Shown here: piece by piece, positions 4,766 through 11,042 of the stretch | How positions within the stretch are numbered: position 1 is the first letter of the stretch | Layout of the letters: each line of letters begins with the position of its first letter | NCBI RefSeq assembly: GCF_003334315.1 | Contig: NZ_QOWR01000086.1 | Direction: 5' to 3' (one strand) | Source: Escherichia coli | GTDB taxonomy: Bacteria > Pseudomonadota > Gammaproteobacteria > Enterobacterales > Enterobacteriaceae | Length of the DNA stretch: 11,081 nucleotides | Notes under the pieces: model-generated | The model's input: only the letters and a program-made list of their open reading frames with translations | Databases searched by the model: none | What the model was told of the DNA's origin: nothing | Made by a program: the position numbers and the translations under genes

Positions 4766-4797
4766 AATAAAAAAGGCCCCCCGATTTGGGAGGCCTT
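4766..4797 (-). terminator. pheA attenuator (intrinsic terminator of the pheL leader transcript)
   Basis: Minus strand reads GGCCTCCCAAATCGGGGGGCC followed by TTTTTTATT, a GC-rich hairpin plus U-run. It sits between the pheL stop (4844) and the pheA start (4745). Confidence 0.85.
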
Positions 4798-4843
4798 ATT
4801 GTTCGTCTTCGCATTCTGTTTCACACGACGAAACGCCTCCCAT

Positions 4844-4891
4844 TCAGGGGAAGGTAAAAAAGAATGCGAAGAAAAACGGTATGTGTTTCAT
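4844..4891 (-). CDS. pheL: pheA leader peptide (Phe-rich attenuation peptide)
   Basis: Minus strand ATGAAACACATACCGTTTTTCTTCGCATTCTTTTTTACCTTCCCCTGA translates [15 protein letters not shown]: 15 aa with 7 Phe codons. Too short for the ORF track; found by reading the sequence. Confidence 0.9.
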
Positions 4892-4916
4892 GTTTGTTTC
4901 CTTAAGTGACTTTAGT

Positions 4917-6478: not shown

Positions 6479-7459
6479 ATGGCACAACGAGTACAGCTCA
6501 CTGCAACGGTGTCCGAAAACCAACTCGGTCAACGCTTAGATCAGGCTTTGGCCGAAATGTTCCCGGATTATTCACGTTCGCGAATAAAAGAATGGATCCT
6601 CGACCAGCGAGTGCTGGTTAACGGCAAAGTTTGTGATAAGCCGAAAGAAAAAGTATTGGGTGGCGAGCAGGTTGCCATCAACGCTGAGATTGAAGAAGAA
6701 GCGCGTTTTGAACCGCAGGATATCCCGCTGGATATCGTCTATGAAGATGAAGACATTATTATCATTAATAAACCGCGCGACCTGGTGGTACATCCTGGCG
6801 CGGGTAACCCGGATGGCACGGTACTGAATGCGTTGCTTCATTACTATCCACCCATTGCCGATGTACCGCGTGCGGGCATCGTCCATCGTCTGGATAAAGA
6901 CACCACTGGCCTGATGGTTGTGGCAAAAACCGTTCCGGCTCAGACGCGTTTAGTCGAATCTTTGCAACGGCGTGAAATTACTCGTGAGTATGAAGCGGTG
7001 GCGATTGGTCATATGACCGCAGGTGGCACGGTGGACGAGCCAATCAGTCGCCACCCGACCAAACGTACCCATATGGCGGTGCATCCGATGGGCAAACCAG
7101 CGGTGACTCACTATCGCATCATGGAACACTTCCGTGTGCACACGCGTCTGCGGTTGCGTCTGGAAACTGGACGTACGCACCAGATCCGCGTGCATATGGC
7201 CCATATCACTCATCCGCTGGTGGGCGATCCGGTTTATGGTGGCCGTCCGCGTCCGCCAAAAGGTGCTTCGGAAGCATTTATCTCCACGCTGCGTAAGTTT
7301 GACCGCCAGGCGCTACATGCAACCATGCTGCGTCTTTATCACCCGATCTCCGGCATCGAAATGGAATGGCATGCGCCTATTCCACAAGATATGGTGGAGC
7401 TGATTGAGGTGATGCGCGCCGATTTCGAAGAACATAAGGATGAAGTGGACTGGTTATGA
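6479..7459 (+). CDS. rluD: 23S rRNA pseudouridine(1911/1915/1917) synthase RluD
   Basis: 326-aa ORF with an N-terminal S4-like RNA-binding region and the RluA-family catalytic motif HRLDKDTTG. Matches RluD in length. Confidence 0.95.
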   Translation: MAQRVQLTATVSENQLGQRLDQALAEMFPDYSRSRIKEWILDQRVLVNGKVCDKPKEKVLGGEQVAINAEIEEEARFEPQDIPLDIVYEDEDIIIINKPRDLVVHPGAGNPDGTVLNALLHYYPPIADVPRAGIVHRLDKDTTGLMVVAKTVPAQTRLVESLQRREITREYEAVAIGHMTAGGTVDEPISRHPTKRTHMAVHPMGKPAVTHYRIMEHFRVHTRLRLRLETGRTHQIRVHMAHITHPLVGDPVYGGRPRPPKGASEAFISTLRKFDRQALHATMLRLYHPISGIEMEWHAPIPQDMVELIEVMRADFEEHKDEVDWL

Positions 7460-8187
7460 GTAAGCTGATTGTCCCGCAGTGGCCGCAGCCAAAAGGTGTT
7501 GCGGCCTGTAGCTCCACTCGTATCGGCGGCGTGAGCTTGCCCCCGTATGACTCACTCAACCTCGGTGCCCATTGTGGCGATAACCCGGATCACGTTGAGG
7601 AGAATCGCAAGCGACTTTTTGCTGCGGGCAATTTGCCTTCTAAACCGGTCTGGCTTGAGCAGGTACACGGCAAAGATGTGCTTAAGCTCACTGGCGAACC
7701 TTATGCCTCAAAACGGGCGGATGCCTCTTATAGCAATACGCCCGGCACGGTTTGCGCAGTGATGACTGCCGACTGCCTCCCTGTGCTGTTTTGCAATCGA
7801 GCGGGAACGGAAGTCGCCGCCGCTCATGCTGGCTGGCGTGGACTGTGCGCAGGCGTGCTGGAAGAGACGGTTTCCTGTTTTGCTGATAATCCGGAAAATA
7901 TTCTCGCCTGGTTAGGGCCGGCAATTGGTCCACGCGCGTTCGAAGTGGGGGGGGAGGTTCGCGAGGCGTTTATGGCAGTAGACGCTAAAGCAAGTGCAGC
8001 TTTCATTCAGCATGGTGATAAGTATCTGGCGGATATTTATCAGCTTGCCCGGCAGCGTCTGGCGAACGTGGGTGTTGAGCAAATTTTCGGCGGCGACCGT
8101 TGTACATATACGGAAAATGAGACTTTCTTCTCTTATCGTCGCGACAAGACCACCGGTCGTATGGCAAGTTTCATTTGGCTGATATAA
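7456..8187 (+). CDS. pgeF: YfiH/PgeF (DUF152 / LACC1-family purine nucleoside phosphorylase; peptidoglycan editing factor)
   Basis: 243-aa ORF beginning MSKLIVPQWPQPKGVAACSSTRIGGVS. Its start overlaps the rluD stop by 4 nt (ATGA), implying translational coupling. Confidence 0.9.
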   Translation: MSKLIVPQWPQPKGVAACSSTRIGGVSLPPYDSLNLGAHCGDNPDHVEENRKRLFAAGNLPSKPVWLEQVHGKDVLKLTGEPYASKRADASYSNTPGTVCAVMTADCLPVLFCNRAGTEVAAAHAGWRGLCAGVLEETVSCFADNPENILAWLGPAIGPRAFEVGGEVREAFMAVDAKASAAFIQHGDKYLADIYQLARQRLANVGVEQIFGGDRCTYTENETFFSYRRDKTTGRMASFIWLI

Positions 8188-8249
8188 CCTAAAGAATCAA
8201 GACGATCCGGTACGCGTGATTTTCTTTTCACATTAATCTGGTCAATAAC

Positions 8250-8278
8250 CTTGAATAATTGAGGGATGACCTCATTTA
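8250..8278 (+). promoter_or_regulatory. Candidate sigma-32 (heat-shock) promoter of clpB
   Basis: CTTGAA at 8250..8255 and CCTCATTTA at 8270..8278, separated by 14 nt. This fits the sigma-32 consensus (CTTGAA ... CCCCATNT). clpB is a known heat-shock regulon member. Confidence 0.6.
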
Positions 8279-8316
8279 ATCTCCAGTAGCAACTTTGATC
8301 CGTTATGGGAGGAGTT

Positions 8317-10890
8317 ATGCGTCTGGATCGTCTTACTAATAAATTCCAGCTTGCTCTTGCCGATGCCCAATCACTTGCACTTGGGCACGACAACCAATTT
8401 ATCGAACCACTTCATTTAATGAGCGCCCTGCTGAATCAGGAAGGGGGTTCGGTTAGTCCTTTATTAACATCCGCTGGCATAAATGCTGGCCAGTTGCGCA
8501 CAGATATCAATCAGGCATTAAATCGTTTACCGCAGGTTGAAGGTACTGGTGGTGATGTCCAGCCATCACAGGATCTGGTGCGCGTTCTTAATCTTTGCGA
8601 CAAGCTGGCGCAAAAACGTGGTGATAACTTTATCTCGTCAGAACTGTTCGTTCTGGCGGCACTTGAGTCTCGCGGCACGCTGGCCGACATCCTGAAAGCA
8701 GCAGGGGCGACCACCGCCAACATTACTCAAGCGATTGAACAAATGCGTGGAGGTGAAAGCGTGAACGATCAAGGTGCTGAAGACCAACGTCAGGCTTTGA
8801 AAAAATATACCATCGACCTTACCGAACGAGCCGAACAGGGCAAACTCGATCCGGTGATTGGTCGTGATGAAGAAATTCGCCGTACCATTCAGGTGCTGCA
8901 ACGTCGTACTAAAAATAACCCGGTACTGATTGGTGAACCCGGCGTCGGTAAAACTGCCATCGTTGAAGGTCTGGCGCAGCGTATTATCAACGGCGAAGTG
9001 CCGGAAGGGTTGAAAGGCCGCCGGGTACTGGCGCTGGATATGGGCGCGCTGGTGGCTGGGGCGAAATATCGCGGTGAGTTTGAAGAACGTTTAAAAGGCG
9101 TGCTTAACGATCTTGCCAAACAGGAAGGCAACGTCATCCTATTTATCGACGAATTACATACCATGGTCGGCGCGGGTAAAGCCGATGGCGCAATGGACGC
9201 CGGAAACATGCTGAAACCGGCGCTGGCGCGTGGTGAATTGCACTGCGTAGGTGCCACGACGCTTGACGAATATCGCCAGTACATTGAAAAAGATGCTGCG
9301 CTGGAACGTCGTTTCCAGAAAGTGTTTGTTGCCGAGCCTTCTGTTGAAGATACCATTGCGATTCTGCGTGGCCTGAAAGAACGTTACGAATTGCACCACC
9401 ATGTGCAAATTACTGACCCGGCAATTGTTGCAGCGGCGACGTTGTCTCATCGCTACATTGCTGACCGTCAGCTGCCGGATAAAGCCATCGACCTGATCGA
9501 TGAAGCAGCATCCAGCATTCGTATGCAGATTGACTCAAAACCAGAAGAACTCGACCGACTCGATCGTCGTATCATCCAGCTCAAACTGGAACAACAGGCG
9601 TTAATGAAAGAGTCTGATGAAGCCAGTAAAAAACGTCTGGATATGCTCAACGAAGAACTGAGCGACAAAGAACGTCAGTACTCCGAGTTAGAAGAAGAGT
9701 GGAAAGCAGAGAAGGCATCGCTTTCTGGTACGCAGACCATTAAAGCGGAACTGGAACAGGCGAAAATCGCTATTGAACAGGCTCGCCGTGTGGGGGACCT
9801 GGCGCGGATGTCTGAACTGCAATACGGCAAAATCCCGGAACTGGAAAAGCAACTGGAAGCCGCAACGCAGCTCGAAGGCAAAACTATGCGTCTGTTGCGT
9901 AATAAAGTGACCGACGCCGAAATTGCTGAAGTGCTGGCGCGTTGGACGGGGATTCCGGTTTCTCGCATGATGGAAAGCGAGCGCGAAAAACTGCTGCGTA
10001 TGGAGCAAGAACTGCACCATCGCGTAATTGGTCAGAACGAAGCGGTTGATGCGGTATCTAACGCTATTCGTCGTAGCCGTGCGGGGCTGGCGGATCCAAA
10101 TCGCCCGATTGGTTCATTCCTGTTCCTCGGCCCAACTGGTGTGGGGAAAACAGAGCTTTGTAAGGCGCTGGCGAACTTTATGTTTGATAGCGACGAGGCG
10201 ATGGTCCGTATCGATATGTCCGAGTTTATGGAGAAACACTCGGTGTCTCGTTTGGTTGGTGCGCCTCCGGGATATGTCGGTTATGAAGAAGGTGGCTACC
10301 TGACCGAAGCGGTGCGTCGTCGTCCGTATTCCGTCATCCTGCTGGATGAAGTGGAAAAAGCGCATCCGGATGTCTTCAACATTCTGTTGCAGGTACTGGA
10401 TGATGGGCGTCTGACTGACGGGCAAGGGAGAACGGTCGACTTCCGTAATACGGTCGTCATTATGACCTCTAACCTCGGTTCCGATCTGATTCAGGAACGC
10501 TTCGGTGAACTGGATTATGCGCACATGAAAGAGCTGGTGCTCGGTGTGGTAAGCCATAACTTCCGTCCGGAATTCATTAACCGTATCGATGAAGTGGTGG
10601 TCTTCCATCCGCTGGGTGAACAGCACATTGCCTCGATTGCGCAGATTCAGTTGAAACGTCTGTACAAACGTCTGGAAGAACGTGGTTATGAAATCCACAT
10701 TTCTGACGAGGCGCTGAAACTGCTGAGCGAGAACGGTTACGATCCGGTCTATGGTGCACGTCCTCTGAAACGTGCAATTCAGCAGCAGATCGAAAACCCG
10801 CTGGCACAGCAAATACTGTCTGGTGAATTGGTTCCGGGTAAAGTGATTCGCCTGGAAGTTAATGAAGACCGGATTGTCGCCGTCCAGTAA
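8317..10890 (+). CDS. clpB: ClpB disaggregase (Hsp100/Clp AAA+ chaperone)
   Basis: Track ORF 8305..10890; the start is taken at the ATG at 8317 ([18 protein letters not shown]...), giving 857 aa. GGGAGGAG Shine-Dalgarno at 8307..8314. Two Walker A motifs (GEPGVGKT and GPTGVGKT) and a coiled-coil middle domain. Confidence 0.95.
8749..8763 (+). promoter_or_regulatory. Internal translation initiation site for the short ClpB isoform (ClpB-80)
   Basis: In-frame GTG at 8761 (codon 149), preceded by GGAGGTG (8749..8755) with a 5-nt spacer. E. coli clpB is known to yield a truncated isoform from an internal GTG at codon 149. Confidence 0.65.
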
Positions 10891-10985: not shown

Positions 10986-11042
10986 AAAGTTTTTATATTT
11001 TTCGCTTGTCAGGCCGGAATAACTCCCTATAATGCGCCACCA
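10986..11042 (+). promoter_or_regulatory. rRNA operon P1 promoter (UP element, -35 TTGTCA, -10 TATAAT, GC-rich discriminator)
   Basis: AT-rich UP-like stretch AAAGTTTTTATATTTTTCG, then CTTGTCAGG (-35 at 11006..11011), a 16-bp spacer, TATAAT (11028..11033), discriminator GCGCCACC and inferred start A at 11042. This matches the canonical rrn P1 sequence TTGTCAGGCCGGAATAACTCCCTATAATGCGCCACC. The rRNA genes lie beyond the window. Confidence 0.85.

Follow-up and report, generated by a model that had tools for sequence, protein, structure and literature searches.

The GTG at codon 149 of Escherichia coli clpB almost certainly (probability about 0.97) serves as an internal translation initiation site that yields ClpB80 alongside full-length ClpB. 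This start is real but already known, is already annotated in E. coli K-12, and represents no new biology. We observed the sequence anatomy of the site, the strength of its Shine-Dalgarno (SD) sequence, its position at a domain boundary, its identity with the annotated ClpB80 start, and its conservation; actual initiation at this codon and the role of the short form are taken from published papers. That two ClpB species occur in vivo, the short one depending on the GTG, likewise comes from the literature; the element analyzed here is identical in sequence to that of K-12.

The clpB Locus

The window, i.e., the whole stretch of 11,081 nucleotides that was analyzed, is E. coli chromosome. Its genes are ordered yfiR-yfiL-aroF-tyrA-pheA-pheL-raiA-bamD-rluD-yfiH-clpB, after which an rRNA operon begins. 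A segment of 2751 bases spanning clpB matched every one of 5426 complete E. coli genomes, in several cases at 100% identity, with clpB as the annotation. Translation, annotation, and Pfam domains agree in placing the gene at 8317-10890 on the plus strand, with a full-length product (ClpB95/ClpB93) of 857 aa. The host gene thus encodes the class-1 AAA+ disaggregase ClpB, comprising an N-domain, NBD1, middle domain, and NBD2, as identified by 100% identity to annotated E. coli clpB and by Pfam matches to Clp_N (twice), AAA, AAA_lid_9, AAA_2, and ClpB_D2-small.

Compared to K-12 MG1655, the gene differs by a single nucleotide outside the internal start element. The difference lies at position 8382 (plus strand), the third position of clpB codon 22, which is T here and C in MG1655. 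A mechanical list of open reading frames gives the clpB frame as 8305-10890, compared to the annotated start at ATG 8317; the ATG at 8305-8307 (plus strand) is in frame, lies four codons 5' of the annotated one, and overlaps the primary SD sequence (ATGGGAGGAGTTATG).

Anatomy of the Internal Start and Identity With ClpB80

The sequence at the internal start reads ATG CGT GGA GGT GAA AGC GTG AAC GAT, and its component features are listed in Table 1. Position 8761 equals 8317 + 444 and is in frame 0, hence it is the first base of clpB codon 149. The preliminary description had assigned GGAGGTG to 8749-8755 and an in-frame GTG to 8761-8763, five nucleotides downstream and at codon 149; coordinates, spacing, and frame are all correct. 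The Gly145 codon that opens the SD sequence is GGA, a rare codon that serves only 3 of the 63 glycines in this clpB gene.

Table 1. Features of the two clpB translation starts in the window.
Feature	Position	Strand	Comment
Heat-shock-type promoter-like elements CTTGAA-N14-CCTCATTT	8250-8277	+	Read by eye
clpB primary start: SD GGAGG, spacer AGTT, ATG 8317	8308-8319	+	SD -10.2 kcal/mol
clpB codons 1-148, N-terminal domain, long isoform only	8317-8760	+	Pfam Clp_N repeats; PDB 1KHY
Internal SD GGAGGTG	8749-8755	+	Gly145 (GGA), Gly146 (GGT), first base of Glu147
Spacer AAAGC, 5 nt	8756-8760	+	Separates internal SD from GTG
Internal initiation codon GTG	8761-8763	+	Codon 149; Val in long form, initiator in ClpB80
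ClpB80 coding sequence, 709 codons plus stop	8761-10890	+	K-12 2731600..2733729 mapped onto window

The internal start coincides with a domain boundary. Pfam places one Clp_N repeat at ClpB residues 17-68 and another at 94-145, with the first AAA module beginning near residue 203, and the solved N-domain of E. coli ClpB (PDB 1KHY) comprises residues 1-148. Since the second repeat ends at residue 145 and 1KHY at residue 148, initiation at codon 149 removes the N-domain cleanly, which bears out the earlier proposal that the product lacks this domain; the linker, NBD1, middle domain, and NBD2 are all retained.

The same start is present in the reference record. In the K-12 RefSeq sequence NC_000913.3, locus b2592 carries two coding sequences, one for full-length ClpB and one designated 'ClpB80' (YP_010051194.1, 2731600..2733729), and the first codon of the latter maps to position 8761 of the window. 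Because the K-12 ClpB80 coding sequence begins at this very GTG, the element is already annotated in the reference genome, and this coincidence, together with the literature, supports the earlier identification of the site as the known ClpB-80 internal start. The accompanying claim that annotation misses the site stands only in part: the PGAP annotation of strain CP53 has a single clpB coding sequence, but the curated K-12 record includes ClpB80.

We propose that a single heat-inducible clpB mRNA, presumably transcribed from the promoter-like elements CTTGAA-N14-CCTCATTT, would carry two ribosome entry sites. By eye, these elements resemble the sigma-32 consensus. Binding of a 30S subunit at the 5' SD and ATG would give full-length ClpB (ClpB95), whereas binding at the internal GGAGGUG would lead to initiation at GUG codon 149 and to the 709-aa ClpB80. 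The latter would be devoid of residues 1-148 but retain the middle domain along with both AAA+ modules. Published work describes hetero-hexamers of ClpB95 and ClpB80 that outperform either form alone in reactivating aggregates.

Strength of the Internal Shine-Dalgarno Sequence

We compared the pairing energy of the internal SD with those of other sites in the window. Pairing of GGAGGTG with the 3' end of 16S rRNA yields -13.6 kcal/mol, a value that no other 9-mer of the window's ten genes reaches and that exceeds the SD sequences of all ten annotated starts, that of the primary clpB start included. Among the 51 in-frame internal ATG, GTG, or TTG codons of clpB, the runner-up has an upstream SD of just -8.4 kcal/mol.

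The frequency of the motif is less telling. The exact arrangement GGAGGTG-N5-GTG occurs once in the window compared to 0.01 expected from shuffled sequences, though this motif was picked after the site had been seen. A looser pattern, GGAGG-N4-9-(A/G/T)TG, was found four times over both strands where shuffled sequences predict 4.19, which is chance frequency; taken by itself, the pattern is therefore weak evidence and proves nothing. Moreover, the codons for Arg-Gly-Gly-Glu are G-rich in any case, and the likeness to an SD sequence is therefore partly a by-product of the protein sequence.

Local RNA structure gave no additional signal. The 91-nt fold around the internal start was unremarkable (z = -0.02), and the unpaired probability of the 25-nt site, from an RNAplfold-type calculation, fell at the 64th percentile of the mRNA. 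The annotated clpB start scores even lower in accessibility, which renders this measure uninformative here.

Conservation Within Enterobacteriaceae

Of 5426 E. coli genomes, 5400 carry the 39-mer at 8737-8775 unchanged, and another 19 show one difference. We also compared clpB from four Enterobacteriaceae, namely E. coli, E. albertii, Citrobacter werkmanii, and Enterobacter cloacae, which share 85.5-94% nucleotide identity in this gene. Only 42.5% of the clpB codons that encode the same amino acid are identical in all four, and fully identical windows of six codons make up only 1.7%. Codons 144-149 (CGT GGA GGT GAA AGC GTG) are identical in all four species, and the conserved run consists of exactly these six codons. 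Codons 144-149 are thus under synonymous-site constraint whose extent matches the SD, spacer, and start codon. Within Enterobacteriaceae, the element is therefore constrained beyond what the protein sequence requires; this is not general to Proteobacteria, where GTG149 occurs at the frequency expected from codon usage.

Distribution Across Gamma- and Betaproteobacteria

For the wider comparison, the sample comprised 78 gamma- and betaproteobacterial clpB genes with 66-100% protein identity, drawn from 80 of more than 600 matches. The comparative counts leave out L010, a truncated gene, and L033 and L074, which are out of frame at the site. In L033 (Dokdonella fugitiva) and L074 (a Zoogloeaceae MAG), the longest open reading frame gives an unrelated peptide across clpB codons 138-156, which suggests a frameshift, an assembly error, or a wrong frame picked by the script.

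The protein sequence at the site is conserved more widely than its codons. The peptide RGG(E/Q)xV is kept in nearly all 78 homologues irrespective of the codons used, and Val149 was found in 75 of the 78 genes. GTG at Val149 was not enriched (36 observed versus 35.0 expected from the valine usage of each gene, n = 75; P = 0.45). GGA at Gly145, the codon that creates GGAGG, was enriched, with 13 observed versus 5.9 expected across the 78 genes (P about 0.004, kinship among the genes being ignored). The two codons are also associated: GTG149 accompanies GGA145 in 11 of 13 genes versus 25 of 65 genes that lack GGA145 (Fisher P = 0.0045, again ignoring kinship). Likewise, a strong SD (-9.5 kcal/mol or better) was present in 13 of 36 genes with GTG149 versus 4 of 42 without (P = 0.006, with the same disregard of kinship).

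The combination of GTG149 with an SD of -8.5 kcal/mol or better was observed in 16 of the 78 species, spread over about ten or more lineages; four of these positives are Enterobacteriaceae. Within codons 125-175 of the other 62 species, there was no in-frame start led by an SD of -8.5 kcal/mol or better, except in L066, where ATG141 is the best candidate. The genus Marinobacter is split, with M. daqiaonensis (L031) carrying cgaggcggtgaatcc-GTG and an SD of -10.4 kcal/mol, and M. lipolyticus (L022) carrying cgtggtggtgagccc-GTC, which does not end in a start codon. This difference suggests that the internal start was gained or lost within the genus. GTC or GTT also stands at codon 149 in, e.g., Pseudomonas (L060, L062, L063, L069) and Photorhabdus (L005). 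From these codon patterns we tentatively suggest, at a little short of even odds, that the internal start of ClpB may be confined to certain lineages, with repeated gains or losses among Proteobacteria, as opposed to 'highly conserved'. The conservation of Val149 without enrichment of GTG, together with the patchy occurrence of SD plus GTG, in any case qualifies published statements to the latter effect (PMC6168691).

Published Evidence for Two ClpB Isoforms

Previous studies support initiation at this codon. Together with infB and mrcB, clpB is one of three E. coli genes with earlier characterized internal starts (Meydan et al., bioRxiv 10.1101/520783, citing Park et al., 1993), and specific Ribo-RET peaks have been reported at verified internal starts, that of clpB included (Meydan et al., bioRxiv 10.1101/520783). 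Published work also reports that the E. coli clpB site has been mutagenized.

In Salmonella Typhimurium, HiBiT-tagged ClpB gave two bands, the short form being approximately ninefold weaker (PMC11005335). Both bands remained when Met143 was mutated, and only the long form was left when GTG445, encoding Val149, was changed to CTT (PMC11005335). The ratio of the Salmonella isoforms depends on growth conditions, consistent with E. coli heat-shock data; the alternative starts sit inside detected transcripts, and their differential expression was ascribed to translation (PMC11005335). With regard to function, ClpB95 and ClpB80 have been summarized as forming hetero-oligomers whose reactivation activity is enhanced (PMC6941012, citing Nagy et al., 2010). 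The same arrangement has been described in Mycobacterium tuberculosis, where ClpB-deltaN arises from an internal start at Val149 (PMC6168691).

A second potential start lies close by. The ATG of Met143 (8743-8745, plus strand) is in frame, six codons 5' of the internal GTG, and is without a usable SD. In Salmonella, the Ribo-RET software called Met143 as the internal start, and mutagenesis then pointed to Val149 (PMC11005335). We rejected Met143 as the true start on account of its missing SD (it ranks below -2.5 kcal/mol) and the persistence of the short form in the Salmonella mutant.

Alternative Explanations

Three other readings of the site were weighed. The SD-like sequence and GTG could be a coding by-product of Arg-Gly-Gly-Glu-Ser-Val that has no consequential initiation, a reading that accords with the chance frequency of the loose motif, with the retention of RGG(E/Q)xV in nearly all 78 homologues whatever their codons, and with a count of GTG149 (36) that hardly departs from expectation (35.0). 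However, it is at odds with the enrichment of the rare GGA145 and its linkage to GTG149, and with the synonymous freezing of codons 144-149 in the four Enterobacteriaceae. Given in addition the annotation of ClpB80 in the K-12 record and the published Ribo-RET and GTG mutagenesis in E. coli and Salmonella, its chance of being right is very small. It is very improbable, too, that the short protein derives from a separate internal transcript, with a promoter in the N-domain coding region, or from proteolysis of the N-domain. Internal transcript ends have been described for the clpB gene of Leptospira, in that organism as well as in an E. coli host (PMC6941012). Our promoter scan, which covers sigma-70-type sites only, found no sigma-70-like promoter on the plus strand between 8317 and 8761, and an internal transcript would need the same SD and GTG anyway. 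The Salmonella starts, moreover, lie within detected transcripts with differential expression attributed to translation, and mutation of the GTG alone abolishes the short form there, which excludes proteolysis (PMC11005335).

The internal SD-like sequence might instead act mainly as an elongation pause site that aids co-translational folding of the N-domain, with initiation being incidental. It is indeed the strongest anti-SD match in clpB and lies exactly at the boundary between N-domain and linker. SD-induced pausing in ribosome profiling has largely been put down to technical artifact. Pausing also leaves unexplained why a GTG is linked to this sequence at the right spacing and why the short form is lost upon mutation of that GTG (PMC11005335), and we consider it a highly unlikely account of the element. 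Overall, all three alternatives are contradicted by the GTG-specific mutagenesis (PMC11005335) combined with the codon-level linkage and constraint, and internal initiation at codon 149 is the reading we retain.

Other Features of the Window

Several further features were observed around clpB. The small RNA RyfD, which is annotated as ryfD in K-12, matches Rfam RF02768 at 8198-8336 with 125 bits, and its site spans 8195-8337 (plus strand). Encoded on the clpB strand, RyfD extends across the intergenic region between yfiH and clpB, takes in the promoter-like elements of heat-shock type and the SD of clpB, and reaches 21 nt into the clpB coding sequence. Upstream, the stop codon of rluD overlaps the start codon of yfiH at 7456-7459 (plus strand; open reading frames 6479-7459 and 7456-8187), which is the usual layout for translational coupling. 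Within yfiH, eight consecutive G with AGG directly after them (GTGGGGGGGGAGGTT; 7947-7974, plus strand) constitute the second-strongest anti-SD site of the window at -12.2 kcal/mol. Codon 173 of yfiH is an in-frame ATG at 7972, 14 nt past GGAGG, a gap that is probably too long for SD-led initiation. The G8 tract, being situated in the yfiH coding region, is a potential slippage site.

On the minus strand, the Phe leader, i.e., the pheL attenuator upstream of pheA, was recognized at 4767-4892 (Rfam RF01859, 132 bits); its region holds two of the four chance matches to GGAGG plus a start codon. Downstream of clpB, a near-consensus sigma-70 promoter (TTGTCA-16-TATAAT, 11/12) is located at 11006-11033 (plus strand), approximately 115 nt past the clpB stop. 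It presumably belongs to the rRNA operon that lies downstream of clpB in E. coli; in strain CP53, the 16S gene starts approximately 440 nt past the clpB stop.

Significance

The clpB locus is a textbook example of how a single bacterial gene gives two N-terminal proteoforms by way of an internal SD and GUG, and mixing of the two forms, ClpB95 and ClpB80, reportedly adjusts disaggregase activity during heat stress. Being an experimentally validated internal start that was recovered from raw sequence and is left out by PGAP, it is a useful positive control for genome scans. The only mildly new point is comparative, namely that the start codon is not kept beyond codon usage across Proteobacteria.

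Comparison With Known Systems

The closest parallels come from other bacterial ClpB proteins and from other E. coli genes with two starts. In the distant lineage of M. tuberculosis, ClpB and ClpB-deltaN likewise include a truncated isoform initiated at Val149 (PMC6168691). That report calls the GTG 'highly conserved' on the basis of a protein alignment, whereas in our proteobacterial sample the residue is kept and the GTG codon is not enriched. The ClpB pair of Salmonella Typhimurium (mBio 2024, PMC11005335) uses the homologous Val149 GTG and shares with E. coli the Met143 ATG six codons upstream; it differs in belonging to another species, and its short form is approximately ninefold weaker with a condition-dependent ratio (PMC11005335). 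In E. coli itself, infB (IF2 alpha/beta) and mrcB (PBP1b) similarly produce two N-termini from one gene through an internal SD and start, though the proteins are unrelated to ClpB and so are the functions of their N-terminal extensions.

The element described here corresponds most directly to dual initiation in E. coli K-12 clpB, in which the ATG gives ClpB95/ClpB93 and GUG codon 149 gives ClpB80/ClpB79 (Park et al., 1993, J Biol Chem 268:20170; annotated as YP_010051194.1 in NC_000913.3). The K-12 gene agrees with that of the window in locus, GTG position, SD, spacer, and 709-aa product. Compared to K-12, nothing of substance differs: a single base, at 8382, sets the two genes apart, and the internal start is the same.
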